NCBI GenBank assembly: GCA_964407105.1
Contig: CAYOUG010000002.1
Span: 76,003 to 140,002 of the forward strand
From: an uncultured Candidatus Saccharibacteria bacterium
GTDB taxonomy: Bacteria; Patescibacteriota; Minisyncoccia; Phycocordibacterales; CALRHW01
Direction of reading: 5' to 3'
DNA length: 64,000 bases
The notes under the pieces are model-generated. The model was given only the letters and a program-made list of their open reading frames with translations, was not told the DNA's origin and made no database searches. Shown here piece by piece: positions 6,562-45,782 of this stretch. The first letter of the stretch is position 1. The number at the start of each line of letters is the position of its first letter. The position numbers were made by a program, and so were the translations under genes.

Positions 6562-6590
6562 TTGACGTGGCATATTTTATATGCTATAAT
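6562..6590 (+). promoter_or_regulatory. Near-consensus sigma70 promoter (TTGACG-17-TATAAT) driving the GC-rich orphan ORF 6645..7079
   Basis: TTGACG at 6562-6567, 17-nt spacer, TATAAT at 6585-6590; AGGAGA RBS 8 nt before the ATG. Confidence 0.6.
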
Positions 6591-6644
6591 TGACATAGGT
6601 GGTGGGATAAGTATATCTCACAATTTTGGCTCTTTTACAGGAGA

Positions 6645-7079
6645 ATGGTCATGCTTACGGATCAAATAATGATGGTGGTGCTTTTGTCCTTCGTGGTAGG
6701 AGGTGCGGTGTTGGTTTTTGGGTTGTGGATGAAGGTGTCAGTATTGATGGGCGACAAAGGCCGCCCTGTATTTCTCTCGGAGATCTATAAACCGGGAGAT
6801 GGGGTAATTGTCTGCAGAGTGTTCCAGGGTGATTCCGACAATTTCGACACATTCATTCAGTGTCGAAAACCTGATCAAACAGGAAAAATGGGTGCATTCA
6901 GGTTTGTGCGGGCGCACACACTGACTTGTAATGGTGAGCGTATTAGCAAAAACTCACTACCACCCGGAACATACCGGTACATCAAGGAAACCATCACAAC
7001 ACAAAACAGCAACGGCAATCTGCACATTGCAAGGACGACAGAGAGACTCGAGCCGATAATTCTCGATCACTCCGCCTGA
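6645..7079 (+). CDS. Hypothetical protein with N-terminal TM helix; compositionally foreign (about 50% GC)
   Basis: 144 aa ORF using GC-rich codons in an AT-rich genome; has its own promoter, RBS and downstream hairpins; no motif recognised. Confidence 0.4.
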   Translation: MVMLTDQIMMVVLLSFVVGGAVLVFGLWMKVSVLMGDKGRPVFLSEIYKPGDGVIVCRVFQGDSDNFDTFIQCRKPDQTGKMGAFRFVRAHTLTCNGERISKNSLPPGTYRYIKETITTQNSNGNLHIARTTERLEPIILDHSA

Positions 7080-7198
7080 GACCCCCTTGGTCAAAGTTTG
7101 CTCTTAAAACAAGCAAACCAAGACCACCAAACCCCAAAGCTCAAAAGGCAGAGGGGTTTATTCATATAAAAATTACAAAAAATTTATTTTTTTATATC

Positions 7199-7813
7199 TT
7201 ACTGTCTATTTTTCAAAGCGTTTTTTAAGGTTTCGTTATCTGAATATTCAAGCTCAGTACCAGTAGAAAGTCCGCGTCCAAGAAAAGAAATTTTAATATC
7301 GTGTTTTAAAGCAAAAGTTTCAAGAGATTTTTTTATTGAATCGCCAGTATGTTCTCCTTCGGGGTTTGCATTCATTGCAAGAATAATTTCTTTTAATTTT
7401 GTTGCACGTGTTTCTATGAGTTTTAATAATTCGCGCAATCTCACACGTTTTTCTGGTGATGGTTCAAGTATTGGTATGGTACCACCAAGTATAAAATACA
7501 GTCCATTGTATGCACCGGTTTTTTCTATATGTTCAAAATCTACATCACGACTCACTACGGTAAGTAGGGAAGTATCGCGGTTTTTTGCATTACAAATATC
7601 GCAAGAGTGTGAGCCAGATGCGTTTTTTATATAAAAACGAAAACAAGTATCGCAGGTTTGTATTTCCTCATGAATTTTAGTAATAAGCGAAGTGATTTCG
7701 TTTAAATAACTTTTATTACGGGTAAGTAAAAAATACACAAAACGTTTTGCTTGGCGTGGACCTATACCCGGAAATTCTGCAAAAAGCGCGGTAAGTTTTT
7801 GAAGCGTGTTCAT
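7199..7813 (-). CDS. recR: Recombination protein RecR
   Basis: N-terminal HhH (FPGIGPRQAKRFVYFLL), C4 zinc finger (CDTC...CDIC), Toprim domain, about 200 aa. Confidence 0.85.
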   Translation of the reverse strand: MNTLQKLTALFAEFPGIGPRQAKRFVYFLLTRNKSYLNEITSLITKIHEEIQTCDTCFRFYIKNASGSHSCDICNAKNRDTSLLTVVSRDVDFEHIEKTGAYNGLYFILGGTIPILEPSPEKRVRLRELLKLIETRATKLKEIILAMNANPEGEHTGDSIKKSLETFALKHDIKISFLGRGLSTGTELEYSDNETLKNALKNRQ

Positions 7814-7839
7814 AAAGTGTGCGCTATAGATTTAAGATA

Positions 7840-9243: not shown

Positions 9244-9303
9244 GCTATTGATGCGAGTTTAAAGTTGCAAACGGTACTAAGCTGTGTTTAAGCTGTGAAT
9301 AGC

Positions 9304-10695: not shown

Positions 10696-10722
10696 GATGG
10701 TAAAAATCTATCAAAACAGTGA

Positions 10723-11637: not shown

Positions 11638-11711
11638 ATGAAAGGAATTAATCTAATTATAATGCAATACGTGTTTGACCACAAGAAGTCTGTTTGCGAT
11701 AATGATGAACA

Positions 11712-12941
11712 ATGAATGAATATTTTTCGAAGTACCGTATTACGGTTATAGTTTCGTTTCTTATAATATGTACTTCTTTTTTTGGTGGAGTGTATGTGGG
11801 CATACATCAGAAAACCACCGGTACAGCAGCTGACTTACAAAACAAAAATCCAAACACACTTGTAAAAGGAGACTTTTCGCCATTTTGGAGAGCGTGGGAT
11901 ATTCTTACTGAAAAATATGTTGGGTCCGCTTCAAGTTCTAAATCTGTAAATGATCAGGAAAAAATATGGGGCGCAATCGAAGGACTTGCTCGGTCATTTG
12001 GCGATCCATACACAGTATTTTTTCCTCCAGAAGAATCTGAAATGTTTAAAAATGATATTGCAGGAAATTTTCAAGGTGTTGGTATGGAAATCGGTATTCA
12101 AGATGACATTTTAACCGTTATTGCACCATTAAAAGGTACACCTGCTGATAAAGCTGGAATTCGCGCACAAGATAAAATTTTAAAAATCGATGAAGTGTCC
12201 ACTGTAAATTTGAGCTCTGAAGAAGCTGTAAAACTTATTCGTGGAAAAGAGGGAACAAAAGTTAAGTTTCTCATTTTACGAGAAGGCGTTGATCAACCAA
12301 TTGAAATTTTAGTGACTCGTGCCGTGATAGATATTCCAACGATTAAAACACAACTTCGACCAGATGGGGTTTTTGTAATTGAACTTTATAATTTTTCTGC
12401 AATTTCTGCCGATCTTTTTAGATCAGCATTAAGAGAGTTTGTATCTTCTAGGAGCAACAAATTGGTTCTTGATTTACGAGGAAATCCTGGCGGATATTTG
12501 GAAGCAGCGGTAGACATGGCAAGTTGGTTTTTACCGCTCGGTGACGTTGTTGTAAGAGAAGATTTTGGTGGTAAACAAGAAGAAACAATTCATCGAAGTA
12601 AGGGTTTCAGTATTTTTAATGAAAAACTTAAAATGGCTGTGCTTATCGATGCGGGATCAGCATCAGCATCTGAAATTCTTGCGGGGGCACTTTCTGAGCA
12701 TGGTGTGGCCACACTCGTTGGTACACGATCTTATGGAAAGGGTTCGGTGCAAGAACTTGTAAAAATTACTCCAGAAACTTCTCTTAAAGTAACCATTGCT
12801 CGATGGTTGACACCAAACGGTGTTTCTATTTCTGAGGGGGGTCTGAAACCGTCCTTGGAAGTAGAGAGAACACTAGAAGATGTAAAGAAGGGGATTGATC
12901 CACAAATGGCAAAGGCAGTTGAACTATTACTCAAAAAATGA
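11712..12941 (+). CDS. ctpA: Carboxyl-terminal processing protease (S41 family, PDZ domain)
   Basis: PDZ region (GIRAQDKILKIDE), then GNPGGYL and SASASEILAGAL S41 catalytic motifs. Confidence 0.8.
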   Translation: MNEYFSKYRITVIVSFLIICTSFFGGVYVGIHQKTTGTAADLQNKNPNTLVKGDFSPFWRAWDILTEKYVGSASSSKSVNDQEKIWGAIEGLARSFGDPYTVFFPPEESEMFKNDIAGNFQGVGMEIGIQDDILTVIAPLKGTPADKAGIRAQDKILKIDEVSTVNLSSEEAVKLIRGKEGTKVKFLILREGVDQPIEILVTRAVIDIPTIKTQLRPDGVFVIELYNFSAISADLFRSALREFVSSRSNKLVLDLRGNPGGYLEAAVDMASWFLPLGDVVVREDFGGKQEETIHRSKGFSIFNEKLKMAVLIDAGSASASEILAGALSEHGVATLVGTRSYGKGSVQELVKITPETSLKVTIARWLTPNGVSISEGGLKPSLEVERTLEDVKKGIDPQMAKAVELLLKK

Positions 12942-12976
12942 TAGAACTCTAGAATCATTTAATTATAAAAAACAGC

Positions 12977-13423
12977 ATGAAAGTTATTTTACTAAAAAAT
13001 GTGCCAAAGGTTGGTCAGAAATATGATGTGAAAAATGTTGCGGATGGTTATGCGCTTAATTTCCTTATTCCTCAAAAGCTCGCTGAGGTGGCCACCTCAA
13101 GTGCTGTAAAAAAAATTGAAGTTTTAAAATCAGCTGATCAAACACAAAAAAAGGTACAGGAAGATTTGTTATTGAAAAATCTTGAAAGTGTAAATTTGGC
13201 AAAAATTGAACTTACAGAAAAAGCCAATGATAAAGGGCATCTTTTCTCTGGTATTCATAAAGAACAACTTATTGCGGCACTAAAAGATCAAGCACACCTT
13301 GATTTAAGTGCTGATTTTATTGATCTTTCAAAACCAATAAAGGAGGTGGGAGAGCACAAGGTTGTTGTGAAAGTGGGGGATAAAAAAGCCGAGTTTTCTT
13401 TGACGATAAAAGCAACTCAATAG
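12977..13423 (+). CDS. rplI: 50S ribosomal protein L9
   Basis: MKVILLKNVPKVGQKYDVKNVADGYALNFLIPQKLA. Confidence 0.85.
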   Translation: MKVILLKNVPKVGQKYDVKNVADGYALNFLIPQKLAEVATSSAVKKIEVLKSADQTQKKVQEDLLLKNLESVNLAKIELTEKANDKGHLFSGIHKEQLIAALKDQAHLDLSADFIDLSKPIKEVGEHKVVVKVGDKKAEFSLTIKATQ

Positions 13424-13441
13424 TAGATATTTTTTAAAAAG

Positions 13442-13481
13442 AAAAGCCCTTGGGGTGCGCGATGCACCTTGAGGGCTTTTT
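13442..13481. terminator. Rho-independent terminator after rplI (bidirectional hairpin)
   Basis: AAAAGCCCT...AGGGCTTTT stem flanked by A and T runs. Confidence 0.6.
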
Positions 13482-13506
13482 CAAGCTTGAATTTGTTTCG
13501 TCTTGT

Positions 13507-13656
13507 TTAGTGGTTTGCCGCCACCTCGGCAACCTTTCCGTTTGTTGTTCGCGGTGACTTATCCAACACAAACATCACAATCATGATGACCGCGAAAATT
13601 CCAACGATTATTAGCAAAGGTTCAAGCCTGTCTAGATCTTTGGTGTTTGTCGACAT
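13507..13656 (-). CDS. Small hypothetical membrane protein (about 50 aa)
   Basis: MSTNTKDLDRLEPLLIIVGIFAVIMIVMFVL single TM; start placed at internal ATG of ORF 13507..13782; GC-elevated. Confidence 0.25.
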   Translation of the reverse strand: MSTNTKDLDRLEPLLIIVGIFAVIMIVMFVLDKSPRTTNGKVAEVAANH

Positions 13657-13822
13657 GCACATTCCTTTCTTTGTGTGTGATTGCGGCTTGGGTCGATGTT
13701 TGTACGTGCGGGATGTTTCTAAAATACACAATACAACACAAAACAAAAAAAAGCAATAAAGATAATATAAAACGAAACACAAAAAACTTTTCGAATGGGT
13801 GAGTTGAGCGCTCCAGTAAACA

Positions 13823-14095: not shown

Positions 14096-14135
14096 ACTTT
14101 ATAATCTATACTTTATCTGCTAAAATTACAGTTAC

Positions 14136-14567: not shown

Positions 14568-14569
14568 TT

Positions 14570-16224: not shown

Positions 16225-16242
16225 AACATACATAAAACATTT

Positions 16243-16929: not shown

Positions 16930-16938
16930 AAAACACAT

Positions 16939-20048: not shown

Positions 20049-20528
20049 ATGTTAAATATAACTGCAATTGGTTTGTACATGATACTTTCTTCTGCTATTG
20101 GTGGTTCACCAGTGGTGGCTCAGGTTTCTGAAATACCAAAGGCAGAACCTCAGCTTATTGAAAAGACCAAAGAAGAAATCGAACAACCCCTAACCACTGA
20201 AGCTTATGTTCGAAATTATTTCTCGGATCTTCCAATTATGATTGAAATTTCTCGTTGTGAATCTGCTTTTCGTCAAAACGATGAAAAAGGAAACATTCTT
20301 CGTGGAATTAAAAATAATTTGGATGTTGGTGCTTTTCAGATTAACGAACATTATCATTCAAAAACAGCAAAAAAGATGGGTGTAAATCTACACACTGTCG
20401 AAGGTAATGCGCAATACGCTCGTTATCTTTACGAAAAAGAAGGTGCTCGTCCTTGGTTGTCGTCATCTAAATGTTGGTCACGATCAAATGAATTAGCAAA
20501 AGAAAATCCTTCTAAAATATACGAATAA
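20049..20528 (+). CDS. Secreted lysozyme-like / lytic transglycosylase (SLT) domain protein
   Basis: Signal peptide, then EISRCESAFRQ...DVGAFQIN resembling the SLT catalytic E-S ... GLMQI motif. Confidence 0.45.
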   Translation: MLNITAIGLYMILSSAIGGSPVVAQVSEIPKAEPQLIEKTKEEIEQPLTTEAYVRNYFSDLPIMIEISRCESAFRQNDEKGNILRGIKNNLDVGAFQINEHYHSKTAKKMGVNLHTVEGNAQYARYLYEKEGARPWLSSSKCWSRSNELAKENPSKIYE

Positions 20529-20533
20529 AACAA

Positions 20534-20560
20534 AAAACCCGCACAATATGCGGGTTTTTT
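20534..20560 (+). terminator. Rho-independent terminator
   Basis: AAAAAACCCGCacaatatGCGGGTTTTTTG. Confidence 0.75.
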
Positions 20561-20681
20561 GTTTTTGGGGTTTTTCTGGGTTGTTTATTAGATTATTTAA
20601 TTAAATAAAAAAAGAAAAACTCACAGAACCTTTTTTGGTCGATGTGAGTTTTCATTCGTTTTTTTGGGTTTTTCAGTAGAA

Positions 20682-20883: not shown

Positions 20884-21324
20884 GTGATATTATCAATTAA
20901 CATTTTTATGTTTGGAAAAATATTTAAAATAGTTAGAAAAAAAAGATTAAGACGACGCCGCCATATCGGAAGAAGGGGATACCTACAACACAAAGAGCAA
21001 GCGAGAACGCTTGTAAAAGAACGACTTGCACACTTTAATACATTTTATAAGTTTGATTTTAAAAAAGTATTTATTAAAAATCAAAAAAGTGTTTGGGGTA
21101 GTTGTTCAACGCGAAAAAATTTGAACTTTAATTATAAAATAATATTTTTATCTCCGCAGGTTGCCGATTATTTAATTGTGCATGAATTGTGTCATTTAAA
21201 AGAAATGAATCATCGTGCGGTCTTTTGGTCGCTTGTTGAAAAGACGGTTCCAAACTACAAGAAACTTCGTAAGGAATTGCGGGCTATCAATAGTGTGAAT
21301 ATCAATAATGTAAAGATAATATAA
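20884..21324 (+). CDS. YgjP/DUF45-family metal-dependent hydrolase (SprT-like HExxH)
   Basis: HELCHLKEMNHRAVFW zinc-binding motif typical of YgjP; true start may be the downstream ATG (MFGKIF). Confidence 0.65.
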   Translation: MILSINIFMFGKIFKIVRKKRLRRRRHIGRRGYLQHKEQARTLVKERLAHFNTFYKFDFKKVFIKNQKSVWGSCSTRKNLNFNYKIIFLSPQVADYLIVHELCHLKEMNHRAVFWSLVEKTVPNYKKLRKELRAINSVNINNVKII

Positions 21325-21422
21325 AGACGATAGACATAAGAGACAAGTCGCACAATTTCCATATCACGATGTAATTATAACGACGCAAATAAAATGTGTA
21401 TAAAAAAGTAAACCCCCATCCG

Positions 21423-21456
21423 GTCTGTGCCGAATGGGGTTTTTTGTAAGAGTTTG
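21423..21456. terminator. Bidirectional intrinsic terminator
   Basis: CCCCCATCCGG..CCGAATGGGG stem followed by TTTTTT; sits between convergent genes. Confidence 0.6.
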
Positions 21457-21473
21457 CCAGGCTCTCTTGCTTG

Positions 21474-21764
21474 CTAGAGAACATCTTCTTCCGTGGGGTT
21501 GTTGGTGCGAGAGCAGAGGTAAATGATCAAAAGGGGCGGTCCCAAAATCACTGCTCTGATGAATCCGGCAAAGCCCCTTACTTCGCGCTGTTCAAATGCC
21601 TCATCCGCAAAGAGCAACCCCACAAGCAACCAGATCGATCCCACGATCAACACGATATTGAAACCAGTAACTGGCCACAAGACCCACAGGTCTGTCGCTA
21701 GCAGAGCAGTTGCAATGAATACAACGCTTGCCCAGATGTTGTTGTTAAGAATATTTGTAGGCAC
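21474..21764 (-). CDS. Hypothetical 3-TM membrane protein, compositionally foreign (GC-rich), GTG start
   Basis: GC-rich ORF; AAGGAG 6 nt upstream of GTG; TTGACA -35-like box upstream; terminator downstream. Confidence 0.35.
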   Translation of the reverse strand: MPTNILNNNIWASVVFIATALLATDLWVLWPVTGFNIVLIVGSIWLLVGLLFADEAFEQREVRGFAGFIRAVILGPPLLIIYLCSRTNNPTEEDVL

Positions 21765-22554
21765 CCAACTCTCCTTGGAAAAAAGAAATACGTTAATAAG
21801 CCCAAGAACGCTATTAGCTTATATTGCTGTAATATAGACCATCTGTCAATGGGGTAGTAAGAGAGCCTTTATATAAGGATACGTCGCACAATATATCTTT
21901 TACGACACGTAAGTACGGGGCGGTTGGCAGCTTTAATTCAAACCACTTCCCCGGCGGTTAATTTTTGTTTTTTATAGATAGCTATAAATATGTAAATATA
22001 TTGTTTTTATTTATTATCTATCCCCGCGCCGTGGTTTACAGTTAAAAATTATTTTTTTATTTAACTATTATTAATAAAATTTTAATAAAACCCCCAAATT
22101 GATCATTTGTTTGGTTTTTATTGCAAAAAGCTGATTTTGTGTTTTTTCTATCAAAACCCATAAAAACGACCTCTTAAAATGCCCAAGGAGATGCTTAAAT
22201 ATTTTTAGATGATATCTCTATCATATATTTTTGTACCACTTTCTTTTTATTATTGTTTCTATATCTTTTTTATAATTAAAAACAGAAAAATCTAAAAACC
22301 ATAAGTATTTCTATAAAAATTAAATTTTCTGTAGCGCCACATCTTTTTGTTTTTTTGATTTACTAATTTTTTATAACGAAGATATTTAATGATATTTAGT
22401 GGTTGAATCAATATTAAAATTATTTTAATAAAAAATATAGATACAAAAAATAGACATAATACTTAACGTGCTAAGTATTATAATGATTAAAAATTCTACC
22501 ATCCACACACTTAATGCGGGGGCTTCTTAAAAAATAGGTTATACCCACTGTTTT

Positions 22555-23565
22555 TTATTGAGAATGAGAATAAATTTCTTTTGCTTGTTCCCAGAACTCT
22601 CCGTGCCCCCTGTCTTTCATCCAATACCACCACTCTATCCCCCACAAATATTGAGTATCAAATCCGGTTTGTTTTGCAAATTCAATAATTTCATTAAATT
22701 TTGATATATCCATACGACTGATTTGTATATCAAGTGGTGTTTCTGCTATTGGTTTTAAAAGCCACGGCTCTAAGGAAAGCTCACTAATTATTGCTGGTTT
22801 GTTGGATGTTAAAAGTTTAATAATATTATGTTTGATTCTAAAGAAAGCTGGTGTGATGGGATATCTCATTGCGCCAAAAGTATTGTTCCAAACATAAAGA
22901 TAAATACTTGTACCAAAAATATCAGATCTTTTATAAGCTTGATACCACAGACTCAACTCTCCACTATCAGTAAGTAAAATTGGTGTATCAAGATCAAGTG
23001 TGTGCACGAGTTTGATTTCCTTGTCAAAAAAATCTGTGTCAAAAAAATCTTTGCAATGATAGCGAGCGTAAAATCCTAAAAAGGCTTCATTTTCTACTTG
23101 CCAATACAATAAGTTTGGATAATCCCTATATCTTTTGACGACAGTTTCTATATATTCAAGTAGTGCTTGTTGTTTTTTTTCTACATCCAAATCATATACC
23201 CACTCTGGTTCGTGACATTCTGGCCAACCAGGTAAACGCCTACCAACAGTAAGAATTACTGATGCATTTCGTTTGAGAGCTTCGTCCATTTGAAAATCAA
23301 GTGCAGAAAAATCATATTCGTTATTTTTTGGTTCAATACCAGACCAATGCGCTGACAATCTAAATTTTTTGATTTTTAGTTCGTCTAGCGCTGATAAATA
23401 CACCTTTTTCCAATCTAGAGACAGCTCATCAGAATGAAGTTTGCTAAAAGAGACACCGTATGTAAACGCGCTGGGTGTTTTTTCAAGGGAAAGTATGAAA
23501 AGTATTGAAAAAATAATAATACATATCAACAAAAGTATAATTAGAATTTTTTTAAAACGATGCAT
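22555..23565 (-). CDS. Signal-anchored TIM-barrel glycoside hydrolase (GH5/GH42-like)
   Basis: N-terminal TM; WQVENEAF candidate catalytic NEP-type acid/base motif; aromatic-rich barrel. Confidence 0.45.
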   Translation of the reverse strand: MHRFKKILIILLLICIIIFSILFILSLEKTPSAFTYGVSFSKLHSDELSLDWKKVYLSALDELKIKKFRLSAHWSGIEPKNNEYDFSALDFQMDEALKRNASVILTVGRRLPGWPECHEPEWVYDLDVEKKQQALLEYIETVVKRYRDYPNLLYWQVENEAFLGFYARYHCKDFFDTDFFDKEIKLVHTLDLDTPILLTDSGELSLWYQAYKRSDIFGTSIYLYVWNNTFGAMRYPITPAFFRIKHNIIKLLTSNKPAIISELSLEPWLLKPIAETPLDIQISRMDISKFNEIIEFAKQTGFDTQYLWGIEWWYWMKDRGHGEFWEQAKEIYSHSQ

Positions 23566-33161: not shown

Positions 33162-33185
33162 TTATATGAAGAAGGGCGCGCCACG
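33162..33185. repeat. Perfect GC-only hairpin/palindrome GGGCGCGCCAC-GT-GTGGCGCGCCC
   Basis: 11-bp perfect stem of pure G/C in an AT-rich genome; lies between the GC-rich orphan gene (stop 33229) and the ftsW start. Confidence 0.6.
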
Positions 33186-33228
33186 TGTGGCGCGCCCAAG
33201 TTTTGCTGTTGGGGTTTTGATTCAGGTG

Positions 33229-33750
33229 TTAGGCGGCCACTTTTTCAGGCGGCGAAACCAACACCTGACACACAATGGTTGTTCCAGAAATAGCGACGCT
33301 ATGAATGTCTCGACATTCGTGGTCACAACCATACTCTTTTAGAAGGTCGCCAATGTGCGCGTTGCACAAACCCGACAACCAAAGAGTTTCATCGCAAACG
33401 ACATCGCTGTCGGTCGAGCAATGGGTTTCCCACGCCCAGTGACCGATATACATCAGTCGTTTGATGAGATCTGCTACTGCTTCGGTCACTTCGTAGTGAC
33501 AATCACACACCTCAAATTTGATCTTTGGGTATGCTTTGGCGATCCGTTCTTCTCGTCTGGTGCGGTAAATGATCGCTGCGTCTTCGTCGCTGTCCTCGAG
33601 TTTCTTGATTCGAGCAATTTCTAGACGCCGAATTTCTTCGGCGATGTTCTCTGTGCGTGCCCAAAGATCACCCGTTTTCCCAGCTACCCGTGCAAGGGTG
33701 GCCAGAGACATACTTTCCGTTGCCCCCTCAAACACAACCATTTCAGTCAT
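33229..33750 (-). CDS. Hypothetical Cys/His-rich protein, compositionally foreign (about 50% GC)
   Basis: 173 aa; CDCHYE...HWAWETHC...CDE...CNAH...CDHEC cluster; own TTGACT-17-TAGAAT promoter and inverted repeat in leader. Confidence 0.4.
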   Translation of the reverse strand: MTEMVVFEGATESMSLATLARVAGKTGDLWARTENIAEEIRRLEIARIKKLEDSDEDAAIIYRTRREERIAKAYPKIKFEVCDCHYEVTEAVADLIKRLMYIGHWAWETHCSTDSDVVCDETLWLSGLCNAHIGDLLKEYGCDHECRDIHSVAISGTTIVCQVLVSPPEKVAA

Positions 33751-33841
33751 GATCCACCCCTATATTCTAATGGTGCGAAATGACGTTCTGAATTAGAACA
33801 GTCTGAAAAATATTCTAGTATAAAAAAGAGACCAAGTCAAT

Positions 33842-34919: not shown

Positions 34920-35867
34920 TTATTGTTGATCTAAATATACCCTACTTGCATTAATAAGTGTCTCTACATCAGCAAAACGTCCTTCGGGGGTTGATCCTAA
35001 CACAGAAATTATAATTGGTCTTCCGAGTTGTGGGTCAAAAGTGATTACGAGATTGCCACCAGCAAGAGAGGTGTAGCCTGTTTTTGAGGCAATTATACCC
35101 GGTATTTTATCTACGGAATTGTTTGTGTTTTCTGCAACGTGAACAATGTTGCTGTCTGAAGTAATTTCTTTTCGACTATATCTTGTGCTGTCCATAAGGT
35201 CTGGATAATTTCGCAAAGCATATTCAAACAAAAGTGCCATTTCGTGCGCAGTACCGTATGCGCCACCAAGCGTTTCGTTTGTGTCGAGTCCGTCTTCATT
35301 TGTAAAATAAGTTTTTTTAAGACCAATTTTTTGAGCCTTTTCGTTCATTAAATTTATAAATTCTCTTCTACCCATTTCTATATCTTTTGTGCCGTTGTGC
35401 ATTGAGCCTATTACAGACGCTATAGCCCTTGAACCATCATTTGAAGAAGTTGTGAGACTAAAATCAACAAGATCTTTTAAATTCCACTGTTCATTTACAA
35501 AAAGTCCGGAGTCTCCCTCTTCTTCTAAAAATTCTTTTTGAATTGCAATAGACGTGTAAGATGGTTCAAGTTCTACTGCGGTCACGGCCATCATTACTTT
35601 GGTGAGTGAAGCTAGTGGCAAAACCATATCGTCTTTTTGTCCAAATAACATTTTTTGTTCTTTTACGTCCCACACAAAAGCGGCAGTAGCACTTAATTTT
35701 ATATCTAAAAATGGGTCAACGTATTTTTTTGTTGCTATTGAATGTTTTATTGTATCTGTTTTTATATTTCGCATTGAACCGAAATATAGAATAAAAAGTA
35801 TCAGTATCAATATAAGTGATATTATTGGCACTATGATTTTTTGAAATGTATTAGTTTGCTCCATCAC
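34920..35867 (-). CDS. dacA: Serine-type D-Ala-D-Ala carboxypeptidase (S11, PBP5/DacA-like)
   Basis: SxxK (ASLTK), SxN (SSND), KTG (KTGYT) motifs; signal anchor. Confidence 0.75.
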   Translation of the reverse strand: MMEQTNTFQKIIVPIISLILILILFILYFGSMRNIKTDTIKHSIATKKYVDPFLDIKLSATAAFVWDVKEQKMLFGQKDDMVLPLASLTKVMMAVTAVELEPSYTSIAIQKEFLEEEGDSGLFVNEQWNLKDLVDFSLTTSSNDGSRAIASVIGSMHNGTKDIEMGRREFINLMNEKAQKIGLKKTYFTNEDGLDTNETLGGAYGTAHEMALLFEYALRNYPDLMDSTRYSRKEITSDSNIVHVAENTNNSVDKIPGIIASKTGYTSLAGGNLVITFDPQLGRPIIISVLGSTPEGRFADVETLINASRVYLDQQ

Positions 35868-38519: not shown

Positions 38520-38552
38520 TTCCTTACATTCTATCTTTTTTAATAAGGGAAT

Positions 38553-39149
38553 TCAAATGACTTTATGTTGTTTTTTCCTCTTAATAAAAAATGTCATTAT
38601 CGTATTTGTACAAATCATCGATACAGAATGAATTGTGGTGGCGATGTTGTATGACTGTAAAGAAAAAAGTGTGAGTATGTGGCGCGCGACATTCATTTCA
38701 TACAAAAGCGGTTGTTCTGTTTTTGGTTGCGACCACGTTTTTCGTAGGGTGGGTATAAAAGCTACGATGTCTATGAGTACCACGATGACGACAGATATTG
38801 TGGGATCTTTTGTAAGCGCCCAAGGGATGAGCCCGAGAAGTGCTATTGCGAGGAAATAGTGGTCTATGGTGCGTATCTGGGCGCGTATATGCTCAGATTT
38901 TCCCATAAAAAGATATTTAAGCGAAAAAAGAAAAATAATAATGGTAAACGCTTCGGCTACGCCGGTGGGCAGTGCGCCTATCCCCGCCCCCTTTGCAAGT
39001 CCACCAAAAAAAGTGGTCATGGAAACGATAGACCATATAAACCACGTGTATGGATGCGGATGCACGACCCCTTTCGCTACGTCTTTGAGATACGAGATGT
39101 TGCCGACAAATGCTAGGACCGCAGCGATGATGGCGAGGAGTTCTTTCAT
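38553..39149 (-). CDS. Hypothetical polytopic membrane protein (GC-elevated 5' half)
   Basis: About 6 TM in 198 aa; no motif recognised. Confidence 0.35.
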   Translation of the reverse strand: MKELLAIIAAVLAFVGNISYLKDVAKGVVHPHPYTWFIWSIVSMTTFFGGLAKGAGIGALPTGVAEAFTIIIFLFSLKYLFMGKSEHIRAQIRTIDHYFLAIALLGLIPWALTKDPTISVVIVVLIDIVAFIPTLRKTWSQPKTEQPLLYEMNVARHILTLFSLQSYNIATTIHSVSMICTNTIMTFFIKRKKQHKVI

Positions 39150-39170
39150 AAAGCAATGATAGCAAATTTA

Positions 39171-39725
39171 TTAATTATCAACCTTTCGTTCTATTTTGAA
39201 TGGTAACGAGTTTACAAGTTTTTCGCCGTTTGAGCTGTAGATCCAACTAAATAGTTTGATATCCGGATTATTCTTCCTGAATTTTTCTACAGTTTCGATA
39301 ATCAGTTCTTTGGCGATTCCTTTTCTACGGAATTCGGGAATTGTAAATGACATGCAAAGATATAACGCCCCATATGTTTGTGCAGGAATCGTCTGTTCAA
39401 ACATCTCTCGTTCAGTGATTTCTTTTCTTATAAATTTTTCCTTAAGCTCTAGGGTGGTTGGAATACTTATCATCCAAGAAACGGGGTTATTATTGTTATC
39501 GAGCGCGGTGTTAAAACAATATGGAGAAAGTTGTCTCATTTTCTCTCGCGATGTTTCTGATACTGGTATTTGTTCAGGATCTATTGCTGTACCAAAAAAC
39601 TGCTCAGTAATAGTTGCAATCTTTTCAATCGCAGGCATTTCAAATGTAGAATGTAGACCGAGTGATTTGAGTTGGTTCATAGAATGAATAGTAGCAAAAT
39701 TAAAACCCCCTCTCATCCCCCTCAT
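39171..39725 (-). CDS. GNAT family N-acetyltransferase
   Basis: Motif A-like RRKGIAKELI; about 180 aa. Confidence 0.55.
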   Translation of the reverse strand: MRGMRGGFNFATIHSMNQLKSLGLHSTFEMPAIEKIATITEQFFGTAIDPEQIPVSETSREKMRQLSPYCFNTALDNNNNPVSWMISIPTTLELKEKFIRKEITEREMFEQTIPAQTYGALYLCMSFTIPEFRRKGIAKELIIETVEKFRKNNPDIKLFSWIYSSNGEKLVNSLPFKIERKVDN

Positions 39726-40341
39726 TCATAATCACAAACTCAATACCATTTTCAGCAAGCACCTTTTCAGGCACTTTGTGATAGCTTCCAATACGATCTT
39801 TTTGAAGCATTCCATCGTGCACCGAAAATGCTTTCTTTGGTTTTACCGCAAGCGCATATCGCACAGCGTCGGCAATTTTGCACCACGGCCCCGCCACAGG
39901 AAGCGCGAGAATGTCCACCGGCTTTTCTGGATTATGAAAAGAATCGCCGGGATAGAAAAGTTTGTTGTCTATAAAATATCCAGTATTTTGCACCTGACCA
40001 ATCTCCTCAAAAATTTCTTCGTGTTTTCCATCAAATGCTTCTATCGTCACGCCTTGTATTTCTGTCTGCGCTCTACCCTCCAGTATTTCATACGGCACAC
40101 CTATTTCATCAAGCTTTTTGCCTACGCCCGTGTTGGTGATCACGCGCGCCTGAGGATTGTGTTTGAGCACTTCTGTAAGAGAGTCGGTATGGAGATGGTC
40201 GGCGTGTTCGTGGGTAATGAGCACAATGTCTATGCCTGTGAGTGTGTTTTGTGCAACAGAAAAATTCCCCGGATCAGTGAGAATGGTGAAGTTGTTTGTT
40301 TTGATGAGGAGGCAGCAGTGGCCGAGTTTTTTGAGGGTCAT
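39700..40341 (-). CDS. MBL-fold metallo-hydrolase
   Basis: LITHEHADH (HxHxDH) motif. Confidence 0.75.
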   Translation of the reverse strand: MTLKKLGHCCLLIKTNNFTILTDPGNFSVAQNTLTGIDIVLITHEHADHLHTDSLTEVLKHNPQARVITNTGVGKKLDEIGVPYEILEGRAQTEIQGVTIEAFDGKHEEIFEEIGQVQNTGYFIDNKLFYPGDSFHNPEKPVDILALPVAGPWCKIADAVRYALAVKPKKAFSVHDGMLQKDRIGSYHKVPEKVLAENGIEFVIMNEGDERGF

Positions 40342-40350
40342 GGGTATTTT

Positions 40351-41277
40351 TTATTGTATCTCAAGTTTCGGATATTTAGCATGCAAATTCTCGAGGTGTT
40401 GTTCGTGAGAGATGTCCGCAGTCTGGCACACATAGGAAAGTTTGCCGAGTATTATGTGAAGTGTGTTTTCGGATAATTTTACCTCGGTATATTTCTGAAT
40501 ACATATAACAACGTCTTTTGAATGAACGACGTTTTCTATAGGATCTGTTTTGAACTCGCAAGAATCGGTAAACACAACAATACTTTGGTAGACATTCTCG
40601 GGTATAGACGGCATGAGCAACTTAAGCGACACGATATGAGACCAGTTCTGCTTGATAGGATTATGAAATTGGAATTTATTTTTTCCACCGGGTCTCGCTT
40701 TATATAATGACTGGGTCCAATGTTCCTGATCCTTACCCCCGAATATCCATCCATTGTAATCCTTACTCTCAATCACAAATATACCAAACCTTGATACGAC
40801 CAAGTGATCTATCTGAGATGATCCGTTATGGTCCGAAGGAATTGTTAGATTATTGAAAATGAAATAGTCCTTATAGTTCAAACCTTCAGCAAGAATATGA
40901 GCAATCTCTTGCTCTCCATCAGTGAGTCCGTCCATGTAACACTTACAGCCATGTTTCTCGCTATTAATTTTTGCAATCTGGTCCTTGGTGGCGTATGCAG
41001 GAATATATAAATTATCTAACTTATCATTTTTTGGTTGACTCGTAAGTTTTCTAATAAGCCATATGATACCACCAAGTATCAATCCTAAAATTAATATTTT
41101 CTCCAAAACGGGGATCAAATTAGTAATAGCAAATGATACTGTGGATATTAATAAAACCAAAACAAAGACAACCCCAATTATAAAAATACCTTCAAATGAC
41201 CCAAAGGGCTCCTTATATTTTTTATAACGACGATGTCGATAATAGTATGGTTTTATGTAGTTACGATAATACCCCAT
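40351..41277 (-). CDS. NERD (nuclease-related domain) protein with N-terminal TM anchor
   Basis: GEQEIAHILAEGL...QIDHLVVSRFGIFVIESKDYNGWIFG matches the NERD pattern. Confidence 0.55.
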   Translation of the reverse strand: MGYYRNYIKPYYYRHRRYKKYKEPFGSFEGIFIIGVVFVLVLLISTVSFAITNLIPVLEKILILGLILGGIIWLIRKLTSQPKNDKLDNLYIPAYATKDQIAKINSEKHGCKCYMDGLTDGEQEIAHILAEGLNYKDYFIFNNLTIPSDHNGSSQIDHLVVSRFGIFVIESKDYNGWIFGGKDQEHWTQSLYKARPGGKNKFQFHNPIKQNWSHIVSLKLLMPSIPENVYQSIVVFTDSCEFKTDPIENVVHSKDVVICIQKYTEVKLSENTLHIILGKLSYVCQTADISHEQHLENLHAKYPKLEIQ

Positions 41278-41288
41278 TTAATTTTATT

Positions 41289-42689
41289 CTACTTCCCCTC
41301 TCCAACAATCTTTAGCCCCAACTCCTTCAGCTGCGCCACCGCTACCTCCGCCGGAGACTGCATCATCGGATCTCTACCCTCACCCGTTTTAGCAAAAGCA
41401 ATCACCTCGCGAATGTTCGGCTCGTTTTGGAGAAGCATTACAAGACGATCAAAGCCGAAAGCAAGGCCGCCGTGTGGTGGTGTACCTGAAGCAAATGCCT
41501 CAAGCATGTGGCCAAAGTTTTTTTCAATGCGCTCAGGTTCGTACCCCATAATTTCGAACACCGCACGAAGCATTGCAGGAGTGTGATTGCGAATTCCTCC
41601 ACCACCTATTTCAAATCCGTTGAGCACCATGTCGTATTGAGCAGCTACAATTCCTTCAATGTTTTTCTTGCCGAGCAGATCTGGCACAAACTCTGGCTTT
41701 GGTGCAGAAAACGGATTGTGTGTAAATGTCCACGCGCCTTCGTCTGTCTTTTCAAAAAATGGAAAATCTACAACCCAACAAAATGCGAGTTCGTTTGGAT
41801 CGTCTTTGTTCACGCGCAAGTCGGGCTTGTCGTTGCCATATTTTTCCATCGCTTCCTTGTATGAAAGTCGAGGAAATGGCGTCTGCAAAATCTTTTTTTC
41901 AGGATAGAGCGTGCGCACGAGCTCGGTAATCATCTTTTCATTCATTGCCATCACGTCTTCTTGCACGACAAAACTCATTTCAATATCTATCTGTGTAAAC
42001 TCAGGCTGTCGGTCGCCTCGTGTGTCTTCGTCACGAAAACATCGAGCGATTTGGAAATATCGTTCAAAACCAGCCGCCATGAGAAGCTGCTTGTATTGCT
42101 GTGGAGATTGTGGGAGTGCGTAAAATTTTCCTTGATCGAGGCGAGACGGCACGATGTAGTCGCGAGAACCTTCGGGTGTGGACTTTGTAAGGTTTGGTGT
42201 TTCTACTTCTGTAAAACCTTCGCGTGTGTAAAATTCGCGCACAAACTGAATTGCGCGATGACGATTGCGAATGTTTGCCTGCATTCTCGGGCGACGAAGA
42301 TCAAGGTAGCGATATTTGAGGCGAGTTTCTTCGTTGATATCGCGGCCGTCTGTGCCGACATCAAAAGCTGGTGTCTGTGCTTCGTTTAAAACGGCGATTT
42401 TTAGAATTTCAATTTCAAGCTCGCCATTAAGCTCGCCTGCTTTCACCATTTTTTCTGGACGCGGATTTACTTTTCCTGTTACTTCAATCACCCACTCGGT
42501 GCGTACAGTGTTGGCTGCCGCATGCGCTTCTGTGTGGTTTGGTAAAGCCACCATTTGCACTTTTCCAGAGCGGTCGCGCAAGTCGATGAAAATGAGTTTG
42601 CCGTGATCGCGACGAATATCCACCCAGCCTTTGATGAGGACTTCCGCACCGATGTGATTTTTAAGCTCGCCGATTAAAATTCTTTCCAT
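41289..42689 (-). CDS. aspS: Aspartate--tRNA ligase (short form)
   Basis: OB-fold N-terminus; class II motifs; bacterial-type signature QIARCFRDEDTRGDRQPEFTQID; motif 3 GGLAFGFDRL; GC-elevated. Confidence 0.85.
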   Translation of the reverse strand: MERILIGELKNHIGAEVLIKGWVDIRRDHGKLIFIDLRDRSGKVQMVALPNHTEAHAAANTVRTEWVIEVTGKVNPRPEKMVKAGELNGELEIEILKIAVLNEAQTPAFDVGTDGRDINEETRLKYRYLDLRRPRMQANIRNRHRAIQFVREFYTREGFTEVETPNLTKSTPEGSRDYIVPSRLDQGKFYALPQSPQQYKQLLMAAGFERYFQIARCFRDEDTRGDRQPEFTQIDIEMSFVVQEDVMAMNEKMITELVRTLYPEKKILQTPFPRLSYKEAMEKYGNDKPDLRVNKDDPNELAFCWVVDFPFFEKTDEGAWTFTHNPFSAPKPEFVPDLLGKKNIEGIVAAQYDMVLNGFEIGGGGIRNHTPAMLRAVFEIMGYEPERIEKNFGHMLEAFASGTPPHGGLAFGFDRLVMLLQNEPNIREVIAFAKTGEGRDPMMQSPAEVAVAQLKELGLKIVGEGK

Positions 42690-42777
42690 GTTGTTGCGAT
42701 ATGGTTATTGCGTCTTTTGATTAAATATATGGTGAATAATAGCAGAAAAAAGTTCGAAACAGAATATCTTTTGTTGG

Positions 42778-42806
42778 TTGACATTTGGTGTAAGGGGTGT
42801 TATTGT
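42778..42806 (+). promoter_or_regulatory. Sigma70-like promoter TTGACA-17-TATTGT for GC-rich orphan 42869..43138
   Basis: TTGACA at 42778-42783; AAGGAG RBS 6 nt before the ATG at 42869. Confidence 0.45.
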
Positions 42807-42868
42807 ATTTTCAGATCGTGAGATGTTCTTGCGATAACCTCTGTGAGGTGCTACCTATTTTGGTGGCC

Positions 42869-43138
42869 AAGTATAAGGAGTCAGTGATGATCATCAAGTG
42901 TGATAAAATTCCTGGTGACCGGTTTTTACGTCTGGTGGAATTCATTTTAGGAGCGGAGAACTTGGTTGATGAAAAGAACCAGGTTGTCAGCTTCAAAGGA
43001 GACATCAAGACTGATGAAGGGTGGTTCGCTGTCACTCTTGAAGTGAGAGACTGGTGGACTACAGAGAAATGGAGAAAGTATCGTGGGGTTTCGGAAAAGC
43101 TCCTTGTTAGGGTTTATCAAATCCTGAATCCATCCTGA
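42869..43138 (+). CDS. Hypothetical small protein (90 aa), compositionally foreign
   Basis: Start set at ATG with perfect AAGGAG RBS inside ORF 42797..43138; GC-rich; intrinsic terminator follows. Confidence 0.35.
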   Translation, partial: KYKESVMIIKCDKIPGDRFLRLVEFILGAENLVDEKNQVVSFKGDIKTDEGWFAVTLEVRDWWTTEKWRKYRGVSEKLLVRVYQILNPS

Positions 43139-43153
43139 ATCCAACTCTTGCAC

Positions 43154-43203
43154 CCCCCGCAAACAACAAAGACTTCGCGTCCGAGTTGTTGCGGGGTTTT
43201 TGT
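43154..43203 (+). terminator. Rho-independent terminator
   Basis: CCCCGCAAACAAC...GTTGTTGCGGGGTTTTTG. Confidence 0.7.
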
Positions 43204-43230
43204 TTGGAAAAATTTATAAAATTACAAAAG

Positions 43231-43277
43231 AAAAAGCCTCACCCAGAAGCGGTGACGCTTTTCTGGGTGGGGCTGTG
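43231..43277 (-). terminator. Rho-independent terminator for gene 43298..43798
   Basis: 14-bp stem AGCCTCACCCAGAA/TTCTGGGTGGGGCT (one G-U) followed by U-run on the minus strand. Confidence 0.7.
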
Positions 43278-43297
43278 ATCAGCTCATGAGCTGAGGG

Positions 43298-43798
43298 TTA
43301 CGTTGCTGCATCGATGAAGGGCTGCCAGCGCTCTGTGAGGCCGGGGAAGATTTCGGCCATTCCTCCCATGAGCGCTGGAAGAGCATCGTGGATCGTTTTC
43401 ACGTCTTTCATGCGACACGCCTCCCTTCGCACCCTGCTGTCGTCGTATGAAGTGTAGATTCGTCCCGCCCCCACTCGTTCTTCAAAAGATGTACTGTAAT
43501 TCGCATCTTCTGGGGACGTAACGCAATTCACTGTCACATTCGAACCATTTTTACCGAAGGTTACCGACCATATGCACCTAGTGGAAGGAAAGATTCTTTG
43601 GAATCGCGGCCTTGCTTCCAATGCATAGTACTCCACAAAAACACGCGCACCCTCACACACCGGATTGAGACTTGGAGAGGTACCAACAAGTCCAATAAGT
43701 GTGTACACAATGTGATCAATCTCCTGCCTCATACGGTCGATATTTTTCGAACCACGGACCAGCTGATCGACGATGTTTTCGCTCATTCTATCCTCCAT
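43298..43798 (-). CDS. Hypothetical protein (166 aa), compositionally foreign; promoter carries TACTGTACAGTA palindrome
   Basis: GC-rich ORF; upstream TTGACT-16-CATAAT with 12-bp palindrome at 43852-43863 overlapping the TSS. Confidence 0.4.
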   Translation of the reverse strand: MEDRMSENIVDQLVRGSKNIDRMRQEIDHIVYTLIGLVGTSPSLNPVCEGARVFVEYYALEARPRFQRIFPSTRCIWSVTFGKNGSNVTVNCVTSPEDANYSTSFEERVGAGRIYTSYDDSRVRREACRMKDVKTIHDALPALMGGMAEIFPGLTERWQPFIDAAT

Positions 43799-43896
43799 CT
43801 CTGGAAGGCCCTCTCGGGCGTTGCGAATGGGTATCTCTACCCGTTTAGAACTACTGTACAGTATTATGTAGTATTTTATTTAAAAGTCAATAGATA

Positions 43897-44910
43897 TTAG
43901 GATATGTTGAGCCCTACCTTCTCGCGCACCCCTTTCATCTTCACCTCTGCATGTTCATACATTTTCTCTCCGCCTTTTTTTAATATGTCTATCACACGCT
44001 TTGGATCTTTTGCAATTTCTTCACGACGAGTGCGAAGTGGAGCTACAAACGCAGAAATATTTTTCGTCAATATTTCTTTTGATTCTTTGTATCCAAGACC
44101 ACCTTTTTCATATCGCGCTCGGATGTCAGCGAGCTCGGCACCTTCATCAGCACCAGTCACACCGTTTACATTGCCGGCAAAAAGTTTGTGTAGTGCAAAG
44201 ACGTTACACGTGTCAGGATCTTTTGCCTCATCTACTCCCTTTGAGTCTGTAGGAATCTTCATTACACCTTTTTGAATTTCTTCGTCTGACGCAAAAAGGC
44301 CGATGGTGTTGCCATAGCTTTTACTCATCTTGCGACCGTCCGTGCCAGGGACAGTCATGACTTCTTTTAGAATGAGTGGCTCAGGAAGTGTAAACGTCTC
44401 GCCAAATATTCTGTTGAATTTTTCTGCTGTGTCGCGTGCGATTTCCAAATGCTGCTTTTGATCGGCGCCCACAGGCACGATATGTGCACCCGGAAGCAAA
44501 ATATCTGCCGCCATGAGAAGTGGGTAATCAAAAACGCCGACGTTTATTTCATGATTCTTCGCCTCCGCGTCTTTAAATGAATGCGCGCGCATGAGGTATG
44601 GCATCGTTGTGATGCAATTAAAAATCCACGTGAGCTCTGCGACTTGTGGCACGTCCGACTGCTTGTAGAGTGTTACTTTTTCTGGATCAAGACCAATGGC
44701 GAGGTAGTCTATGGCAAGGTCGAGTGTGTCGCGACTCAAGTCTGCAGGATTTTCTACTGACGTAAGAGCGTGAAGGTTTGCGATAAATAAATGGCTGTCG
44801 TATGTGTTTTGATTGTCCACAAACTGCTTCATCGCGCCAAAATAGTTGCCAATGTGTGGCCGGCCTGTTGGCTTTACACCAGACACAAGAATCTTTTTTT
44901 GCTTGTTCAT
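43897..44910 (-). CDS. trpS: Tryptophan--tRNA ligase
   Basis: KPTGRPHIGNYFGA (HIGH) and KMSKSYGN; start trimmed to MNKQKK ATG at 44910 (338 aa). Confidence 0.85.
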   Translation of the reverse strand: MNKQKKILVSGVKPTGRPHIGNYFGAMKQFVDNQNTYDSHLFIANLHALTSVENPADLSRDTLDLAIDYLAIGLDPEKVTLYKQSDVPQVAELTWIFNCITTMPYLMRAHSFKDAEAKNHEINVGVFDYPLLMAADILLPGAHIVPVGADQKQHLEIARDTAEKFNRIFGETFTLPEPLILKEVMTVPGTDGRKMSKSYGNTIGLFASDEEIQKGVMKIPTDSKGVDEAKDPDTCNVFALHKLFAGNVNGVTGADEGAELADIRARYEKGGLGYKESKEILTKNISAFVAPLRTRREEIAKDPKRVIDILKKGGEKMYEHAEVKMKGVREKVGLNIS

Positions 44911-45040
44911 TATGAATAAAATAATAGCAGAATGTGAGGGGTTTTGAAAGTAGAATACACGTATTTTATTTAAAAAAGAAAGGCTTCGAGTACATCGCGA
45001 AGCCTTAGGTGAGATCGGGAGAGATGTTTGTTCAGAAAGA

Positions 45041-45520
45041 TCACTCCAGCGAATCAGTCTTGAGTTTCTCAACCATCAACTGGAGTGAGATATCAAAGGT
45101 GACCTCGTAGAGAATCTCACAGAACAAAAGGTGGAGTTCATCGTCGCAGAACGACCAAAACTCACTGAATTCACGCTCCTTCCACTCCTGGACCACGGAG
45201 TCGATTTGGCCAGCCGCATGCCAGCCCCTCATAAGCAAACCCGTAGCAACTCGAGCCAGGGCGCCGACATGAATTGGACGCTCCTCATACAGAAAGGCGG
45301 CTAATGTCCAGCCGTTGCTGTACCACACCATTTCCTTGATGCGGTTGATCATTGTTTTTCTGTAGCGGTGAACGAGCCACTCAAAGGCAAGTTCACCGCG
45401 ACAATTTTGAGAAATTTGATCTGTGAGTTCACCAAGAATGTGTGGGTCATTCCGAAGAATGTGCTCCATAACTTCATGCGCTAGTGAATTTCGCCTCTCT
45501 AGAGAAATACGGTGTACCAT
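45041..45520 (-). CDS. Hypothetical protein (159 aa), compositionally foreign; promoter carries GTACTGCGCAGTAC palindrome
   Basis: GC-rich; upstream TTGACA(45589-45594 rc)-18-TATAAA, 14-bp palindrome 45549-45562, AAGGAG RBS 5 nt before ATG. Confidence 0.4.
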   Translation of the reverse strand: MVHRISLERRNSLAHEVMEHILRNDPHILGELTDQISQNCRGELAFEWLVHRYRKTMINRIKEMVWYSNGWTLAAFLYEERPIHVGALARVATGLLMRGWHAAGQIDSVVQEWKEREFSEFWSFCDDELHLLFCEILYEVTFDISLQLMVEKLKTDSLE

Positions 45521-45782
45521 AGAGTCTCCTTGGGGTGTGTCTGTTTATGTACTGCGCAGTACATTTTATATCACAAAAAACTATATTGTGTCAATATTAT
45601 TGTACATATAATAAAAGCTCAGACGAAAAGCTTTTTAGAAATTGACTCTATTTGGATTGGTTTGTTATACTGTATTCACAGTGCCGAAAGGCTTCGAGAA
45701 ACCCCGCCATATGGTGGGGTTTCGATTTTATAAGAAGGATTTTAATTTTTCCTTATAAAGAAAGTCTAAAATTTTGTTAAGG

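Follow-up and report, generated by a model that had tools for sequence, protein, structure and literature searches.

The 64,000-nucleotide (nt) stretch of contig CAYOUG010000002.1 analyzed here (positions 76,003 to 140,002, hereafter the window) has a guanine-plus-cytosine (GC) content of 36.7% and carries type IV pilus genes, recR, dnaB, several tRNA synthetase genes, a mraY-ftsW-murG cell-division cluster, dnaK/dnaJ and ribosomal protein genes. The closest relatives of its MraY belong to Parcubacteria/Paceibacteria metagenome-assembled genomes, at identities of 76% or less, and the host is a Paceibacteria (Parcubacteria) genome of about 36% GC in which Shine-Dalgarno (SD) sequences are not in use. 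Between these core genes lie small stand-alone genes of deviant composition, called cassettes in what follows: c1 to c6 correspond to the six open reading frames (ORFs) singled out in an original prediction made from the sequence, and an ORF of 49 amino acids (aa) is added here as a seventh mini-cassette. The layout of the units comprises a sigma-70-type -35 box, an (extended) -10 box, a 5' untranslated region (UTR) of 40-75 nt, an SD motif, a small ORF and an intrinsic terminator (Table 1). Their products would be two or three small membrane proteins (c1, in which an N-terminal transmembrane helix precedes a domain of about 100 aa, c2 and the 49-aa ORF) and four small soluble ones. The seventh unit, located between rplI and rpmA, has its terminator in common with rplI, and a promoter was looked for in it (13445..13656) with none convincing found. 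Three start sites had to be moved with respect to the original prediction. The one given for c4 (42869) is an AAG codon, and the start is ATG 42887, with AAGGAG upstream and in agreement with an independent 83-aa gene call; those of c1 and c5 are probably 6651 instead of 6645 and 43786 instead of 43798.

Table 1. The seven units and the GC-rich block, in window coordinates.
Feature	Extent	Strand	Promoter	SD	ORF or content	GC; GC3	Terminator
c1	6562-7165	+	TTGACG-17-TATAAT, 6562-6590 (11/12 match)	AGGAG	6651-7079, 142 aa	0.478; 0.54	hairpins 7088-7126 and 7129-7159
Seventh mini-cassette	13445-13656	-		AAGGA	13507-13656, 49 aa, one transmembrane helix	GC3 0.54	13445-13495, bidirectional
c2	21414-21849	-	-35 TTGACA, 21849-21844	AAGGAG, 21776-21771	21474-21764, 96 aa, GTG start 21764, ~3 transmembrane helices	0.491; 0.58	21439-21414
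c3	33174-33840	-	TTGACT-17-TAGAAT, 33840-33812	GGGGTGG	33229-33750, 173 aa, 8 Cys, soluble	0.500; 0.51	33197-33174, 10-bp G+C stem
c4	42778-43205	+	TTGACA-17-TATTGT, 42778-42806	AAGGAG, 42875-42880	42887-43138, 83 aa	0.437; 0.49	stem 43155-43196, then UUUUUGUUU
c5	43225-43890	-	TTGACT-16-CATAAT, 43890-43863	GGAGG	43298-43786, 162 aa	0.503; 0.53	stem 43274-43235, then UUUUUCUUUU
c6	44975-45594	-	TTGACA-18-(TG)TATAAA, 45594-45565	AAGGAG, 45531-45526	45041-45520, 159 aa, all-helical	0.490; 0.56	45006-44980, then UUUCUUUUUU
GC-rich block	41222-45565				continuous, 4.4 kb: aspS (GC3 0.46), c4, c5, trpS (GC3 0.43), c6		

The foreign composition proposed for the six ORFs was borne out by computation. 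For 35 native genes the GC content at third codon positions (GC3) is 0.244 ± 0.025 (standard deviation, sd), with a maximum of 0.304, and each of the six ORFs (GC 0.44-0.50, GC3 0.49-0.58) lies at least 10 sd above the native GC3. GC-rich regions of the window extend beyond the six ORFs.

All six ORFs are preceded by a -35 box of the TTGAC type. The near-consensus promoters of c1, c3, c4 and c5 score 10-11/12 in a consensus scan, that of c6 was read directly, and only c2 lacks a good -10 box (3/6 match). Within 60 kb, 27 sites reach at least 10/12, four of which are located 74-108 nt upstream of four of the six cassette starts (estimated binomial p ~5 x 10-7). The total number of promoter-like sites did not exceed the shuffled expectation in two of three 20-kb segments and was above it in the third (58 vs 45.1 ± 4.6), so it was given no weight. 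The promoter of c3 starts 1 nt past the mraY stop codon and that of c5, which is convergent with c4, 6 nt past the trpS stop codon; with their -35 boxes so placed, the inserts are minimal transcription units. At the other end, the regions downstream of all six ORFs form hairpins more stable than those of shuffled sequences (z -2.4 to -5.2), with weak U tracts for c1 and c3. The original claim that each unit has a near-consensus promoter, an SD and a terminator therefore holds for the -35 box, the SD and the hairpin of all six, and has to be qualified for the -10 box of c2 and the U tracts of c1 and c3. Its counterpart, that the native genes lack such signals, stands for the SD only, as equally canonical signals occur at three native operon starts (11675, 14866 and 19938) and in the terminator at 20527-20565.

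The contrast in SD use was measured at positions -20 to -4 of the start, with 50 ATG-start ORFs as the native set. An SD-like motif is missing in 47 of these 50 native starts and present in all seven cassettes (Fisher p 4.5 x 10-7), and neither AGGAG nor GGAGG precedes any of about 50 native starts. Plain A/T-rich leaders are found at starts that are certain from homology (rpsM, rpsK, rpsD, rpoA, rplQ, rpsI, dnaK, dnaJ, mraY, murG, gltX, cysS and recR) and likewise, without SD, in the GC-elevated aspS and metallo-beta-lactamase (MBL) genes. Moreover, an unbiased scan of both strands of the window for AGGAG or GGAGG, followed after 4-10 nt by a start codon that opens an ORF of 45 codons or more, returned c1, c2, c4, c5 and c6 as the only true gene starts, all other matches lying inside native genes or belonging to spurious ORFs. 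SD use, overlooked in the original prediction, is thus a second mark of foreignness, independent of composition, and constitutes the strongest evidence.

Among 78 related loci (29-64% GC) an SD-like motif was detected at 12 of 164 homology-anchored core starts, which is the chance level; the missing SD sites are a property of the clade. This clade-wide scarcity fits a published survey of the anti-SD motif in Parcubacteria, about half of which lack it in their 16S rRNA (PMC9297842). The host genome appears to initiate translation without SD pairing. A leader may even be missing from some native mRNAs, as 8 nt separate the end of the promoter at 11675-11703 from the ATG at 11712. In having native A/U-rich upstream regions without SD, the window is like other SD-poor lineages (Bacteroidetes and the Parcubacteria subgroup without anti-SD, PMC9297842); what is new here is a minority of strong-SD genes that coincides exactly with the compositionally foreign genes.

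To place the units with respect to related genomes, a set of 80 related loci centered on mraY (L001-L080, 1.4 Mb) was used, across which the gene order trpS-aspS-...-mraY-ftsW-murG is conserved. The spacing between mraY and ftsW is 100 nt or less in 47 of 65 relatives, and that between trpS and aspS in 11 of 27. L001, the closest relative, has dnaJ, trpS, aspS and a histidine kinase gene in succession with gaps of 2-22 nt (2 nt between dnaJ and trpS). In the window, the mraY-ftsW junction holds c3, the trpS-aspS junction c4 and c5, the dnaJ-trpS junction c6 with an AT-rich ORFan, and the junction of aspS and the histidine kinase gene a four-gene islet. In the same way, the seventh unit separates rplI from rpmA, two genes with 18 nt between them in relative L091. 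No homolog of c1-c5 was found in the 80 loci by tblastn or phmmer. Tight junctions in the relatives and the absence of c1-c5 from them support the view that the units are presence/absence insertions. Plausible small GC-rich ORFs amount to ~3-4 in the 480 kb of 27 AT-rich related loci, compared to 6-7 in these 64 kb.

The AT-rich ORFan (45783-46577) is also absent from relatives. The islet (38553-41277), of mixed composition, separates aspS from the histidine kinase gene, which are adjacent in L001, and encodes a NERD-domain protein, an MBL-fold hydrolase, a weakly GNAT-like protein and a membrane protein. Both mraY-ftsW and trpS-aspS are recurrent insertion points in Paceibacteria (L002, L020, L026, L027, L036, L043, L050, L079 and others), and the variable junctions of the relatives hold, differing from lineage to lineage, genes for GalU-like, Obg, helicase and ABC-type proteins and small ORFans, mostly of native composition.

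The sequences flanking the units were inspected for repeats. The c6 unit lies between two exact copies of a 13-nt direct repeat (GAAAGGCTTCGAG on the + strand), at 44978-44990 and 45686-45698, one copy abutting the terminator of the upstream gene and the downstream copy being the 3' arm of the c6 terminator. Its chance probability is ~0.7% for the region, by a rough estimate, and it is the sole flanking repeat among the cassettes that is unlikely to occur by chance; it may be an insertion footprint. In a second strain (see below) one copy carries a substitution (44989). Around c2 there is a weak, imperfect 28-nt direct repeat with core GTCGCACAAT (21342-21369 and 21878-21905, 71% match), and the 14-nt repeat flanking c4 (86% match) is also weak. 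The c4 stop codon is spanned by a perfect 11-nt tandem duplication (ATCCTGAATCC x2, 43121-43142), the stop being read from copy 2. A 700-bp spacer of 22% GC (21840-22550) adjoins c2, in a region (21300-22560) where the cumulative GC skew reaches its maximum and gene orientation changes from + to -, as expected of a replication terminus.

Searches with the cassette proteins gave no match in Pfam, PHROGs, NCBIfam or PADLOC. The six are unrelated to each other at the protein and DNA level, their 3' hairpins have no common consensus, and shared motifs sought in the promoter, UTR and terminator regions did not go beyond the generic -35 and extended -10 boxes. Consequently, the expectation of mutually dissimilar proteins outside known families was upheld in curated-library searches, and the word "family" originally applied to the units was not, as they are alike in architecture only and not in sequence. 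Among 5.8 billion proteins, c3 retrieved only its own cluster. No close relatives of c1 or c5 appeared in metagenome-contig scans, nor did any of c5 in viral contigs, and a single-sequence AlphaFold model of c5, with a predicted local distance difference test score (pLDDT) of 38, was too poor to be interpreted. The orphan status of c1, c2, c4 and c5 is based on curated libraries, tblastn against phages and plasmids, and the local loci, with these scans in addition for c1 and c5.

For c6, orphan status had to be withdrawn: it is a member of a small family of ~160-aa proteins, with about a dozen distant relatives in contigs that by gene content are like those of the Candidate Phyla Radiation (CPR). 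The homologs occupy unrelated positions, one of them in a Paceibacterium that shares the gene order of the window, and most again stand alone, with their own SD and terminator and, at -75 to -90, a promoter of the TTGAC type. GC3 in this family is 0.46-0.60 regardless of the host, as in L085 (0.49 vs 0.22) and L091 (0.47 vs ~0.31). In L086, from another sample, GC-rich ORFans with AAGGAGG or AGGAGGT (1021-5417), a c6 homolog among them, are found amid AT-rich, SD-less genes. In L087 (~48% GC) all neighboring genes have an SD and the c6 homolog is of native composition, which makes it a possible donor-type setting. The structure model of c6 shows six helices (pLDDT 86.5) without an informative structural match. 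Two candidate identities were rejected for c6, that of a known anti-phage defense protein, the only PADLOC hit being a sub-threshold JetB (E 0.003, 14.7 bits), and that of a ClbS/DUF1706 four-helix self-protection protein, for which there was no significant profile or fold match.

A second strain was available as contigs from an unrelated sample (DRR274965) that are collinear with the window at 97.9% identity, giving one strain pair. At identical sites it has c1, c3 and c6 as well as the beginning of c5 (c3 in L081, the 3' end of c1 in L084), and as these junctions recur in an independent assembly, an assembly chimera is excluded. Comparison of the strains gives 4 differences (2 synonymous) in 1187 nt of cassette ORFs and 104 (83 synonymous) in 4110 nt of flanking core genes (p 7 x 10-8), so that the ORFs are ~8-fold less diverged than the flanking core and their synonymous divergence is ~10-fold lower. 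Gene by gene, core divergence is 3.25% for trpS, 2.88% for mraY, 2.28% for recR and 1.85% for dnaB, compared to 0.2% for c6, and 480-nt segments outside the cassettes all contain at least 4 differences (mean 11.4), with 1 in c6 and 3 in c3. The cassettes are therefore either younger than the surrounding alleles or constrained at synonymous sites. Strain pairs of c6 homologs from elsewhere are identical in sequence, so this divergence contrast rests on a single pair. Some of the differences in non-coding DNA are hairpin-loop flips or run-length indels (33185-33186; 7086). In the perfect palindrome of the c3 terminator, the two central loop bases (33185-33186) are inverted between the strains, from GT to AC, which is the signature of a hairpin template-switch event.

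It could be argued that GC-rich segments of this kind are structured non-coding RNAs, as GC-rich islands in AT-rich genomes often are, or else errors introduced by assembly or binning. Two of the ORFs, c6 and c3, do fold more stably than shuffled sequences (z -4.0 and -2.9, respectively). Nevertheless, no Rfam family at gathering thresholds and no tRNA were detected in the window, and each island coincides exactly with the span between SD and terminator occupied by an ORF of 83-173 codons, with GC1 higher than GC2 in every case. Furthermore, c6 belongs to a conserved protein family and gives a confident structure model (pLDDT 86.5), and the same junctions are found in the independent sample. 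This explanation is already largely refuted, and we regard it as highly improbable.

The same data bear on a more serious alternative, namely that the cassettes form a dedicated native group within the CPR accessory genome, in which the GC-rich coding sequence and the SD leader do not go back to a donor but are maintained by selection, for instance on the mode or level of translation or on the stability of the mRNA. Such a class would account for a c6-family GC3 that stays at 0.46-0.60 in hosts whose GC3 ranges from 0.22 to ~0.6, despite identities of ~30%, for synonymous divergence ~10-fold below core in the cassette ORFs with normal flanks, for the SD-led GC-rich ORFans of L086, and for the stable folding of the c6 and c3 ORFs. 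On the other hand, no excess RNA structure is seen in c1, c4 and c5, c1-c5 are absent from all relatives examined, ORFs of this type are rare in the 27 AT-rich related loci, the divergence contrast comes from one strain pair, and no mechanism is known that selects GC-rich codons in an AT-rich host. We consider this alternative unlikely. A variant, to which we assign a somewhat lower probability still, is a distinct CPR accessory class in which the GC-rich codons and strong SD leaders are actively maintained and are perhaps read by another translation apparatus, either specialized initiation or an SD-using partner cell after transfer; it would jointly explain the steady c6-family GC3 of ~0.5 and the ~10-fold synonymous suppression limited to the ORFs.

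Three of the cassettes, c4, c5 and c6, lie within the continuous GC-rich block of Table 1, and the original description of the units as individually mobilized is doubtful for these three, which share the block with aspS and trpS. Elevated GC3 without SD (38553-42689, 43897-45072, 46593-47681) is observed for aspS (0.46), trpS (0.43), the MBL-fold hydrolase gene (0.47), the membrane protein gene at 38553 (0.46) and dnaJ (0.37). AspS is closest to that of L049, one of the more distant Paceibacteria (71%, vs 62% for L002), even though for mraY, ftsW, murG and the gene at 34920 it is L002 that is the closer of the two, a discordance that suggests replacement by an allele from a GC-richer Paceibacterium. 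The GC-rich block and the aspS discordance make it possible that c4, c5 and c6 entered in one homologous-recombination import of ~4.4 kb, together with the aspS and trpS of a GC-richer relative of the same gene order, and the GC3 of both synthetase genes, 7-8 sd above native, would agree with this. However, SD is absent from aspS and trpS and yet present in c4-c6, trpS similarity ranks as for vertical descent (L001, 75%), and between the strains trpS has diverged far more than c6, so a single import seems to us doubtful, if the least improbable of the alternatives. In any case, it concerns the entry route only and not the foreign origin. The strain differences in trpS are clustered (43931-44323), with 28 in 390 nt followed by 5 in 590 nt, and six within 10 nt (44065-44074), which looks like a within-species recombination mosaic.

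As to a link with phages, the units share with morons of the HK97 gene 15 type (PMC3594210) the single gene, the deviant GC, the insertion between genes adjacent in relatives and, judged from sequence, their own promoter and terminator, which would provide autonomous and insulated transcription. These traits are those by which morons are defined (own promoter and terminator, deviant GC, insertion between genes adjacent in relatives; PMC3594210). Three traits set the cassettes apart from phage morons: their location in the core chromosome of a cell, a GC content above that of the host, and a ribosome-binding signal of a kind not used by the host genome. Their neighbors are core genes (mraY, ftsW, murG, trpS, aspS, dnaJ, recR, dnaB, rplI and rpmA), and no integrase, transposase or phage gene was found near any cassette. 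IMG/VR contained no relatives of c3, c5 and c6, nor of three homologs of c6; a tblastn comparison of the six proteins with 50,697 phage records and 72,556 plasmids gave no match, and c6 had no viral structural match. The "phage-type" label of the original prediction was consequently dropped. With core neighbors and no viral relatives, the cassettes are not located within a phage or prophage and so are not morons by location, although by analogy they would work like phage morons. That they nonetheless stem from a prophage or other mobile element that has since degraded, or are themselves phage morons, would be in keeping with this architecture and with the position of two c6 homologs near genes of mobile-element type (ParB-methyltransferase, M78 peptidase with helix-turn-helix and ART-PolyVal in L088; Mu Gam in L095), but the lack of phage, integrase and transposase genes nearby and of IMG/VR, phage, plasmid, PHROG and viral structural matches renders it quite improbable.

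Other known systems were also compared. Like integron cassettes, the units are small, mostly single-ORF, mutually unrelated and deviant in composition and have a 3' hairpin, and the short direct repeat bracketing c6, which is part of its hairpin, can be listed as a further likeness. Integron cassettes, however, are normally promoterless and in tandem, whereas these units are dispersed and have their own promoters, without integrase, attI/attC consensus or array. The assignment as integron gene cassettes was rejected on these grounds, there being no integrase in the window and no consensus among the 3' hairpins. A classical genomic island or integrative element was likewise discarded, with no tRNA, no recombinase and a significant flanking repeat only at c6. 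The cassettes do show the traits of horizontally acquired ORFans: atypical composition and signals, patchy distribution and absence from close relatives. They also resemble the single transferred genes and islets described in Patescibacteria (PMC12455944) in that these involve streamlined CPR genomes and within-group exchange, often without hallmarks of mobile elements; promoter-SD-ORF-terminator modules and the SD contrast are not described there, and here 6-7 events are clustered in 40 kb, a density far above that of the related loci.

Taken together, we interpret the cassettes, with a probability of roughly 0.65, as recent horizontally acquired accessory genes in an SD-less Paceibacteria genome of ~36% GC, each one a minimal self-contained expression module. 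Composition, signals, presence/absence, low strain divergence and the c6 family make up the evidence, while the type of donor, the entry route and the expression of the cassettes are what we infer. This interpretation fits the frequent single-gene transfer published for Patescibacteria, in which other Patescibacteria are the source of most individually transferred genes (PMC12455944). The donors would use SD-led translation and have ~50% GC, and c6 would have been drawn from a gene pool so far found only in CPR-like contigs. Entry probably occurred by DNA uptake and subsequent recombination, no recombinase being present in the window: for the aspS-c4-c5-trpS-c6 block, the route would be homologous recombination anchored in the conserved flanking genes, and for the other cassettes, microhomology-mediated insertion. 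Each cassette would have arrived as, or become, a minimal self-contained expression module wedged into a junction, its own promoter presumably freeing its transcription from the surrounding operon and its terminator insulating the genes downstream.

Several observations weigh against recent acquisition. The related Paceibacteria examined are also SD-less, as shown by the 12 of 164 core starts, so the donor clade that is likeliest on published grounds does not fit the SD signal of the cassettes. No donor sequence was found for any cassette, and the nearest relatives of c6 are only ~30% identical, with no recent transfer partner sampled. The non-coding parts of the units differ between the strains at 12 of 472 nt, that is, at about the core level and more than the ORFs, with differences restarting 5-12 nt upstream of an ATG and 7 nt past a stop codon; such normal divergence of the non-coding flanks is awkward for the recent arrival of whole units. 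Finally, the native accessory class kept by selection, which is the main rival, better explains two results: a c6-family GC3 that does not follow that of the host, and low synonymous change within ORFs whose flanks change normally.

The cassettes do not amount to a new kind of genetic element. Their interest lies in the organism, as CPR bacteria have tiny streamlined genomes with few recognizable mobile elements and their gene gain is poorly understood, and in this window a conserved core region has gained genes 6-7 times, cleanly and with exact boundaries. Composition and SD use are two independent signals that together make foreign genes easy to recognize in lineages without SD. The cassettes also offer a natural test of whether ribosomes that apparently do not use SD can translate SD-led mRNAs, and their products, one new family among them, are small proteins with a possible role in strain-specific interactions.

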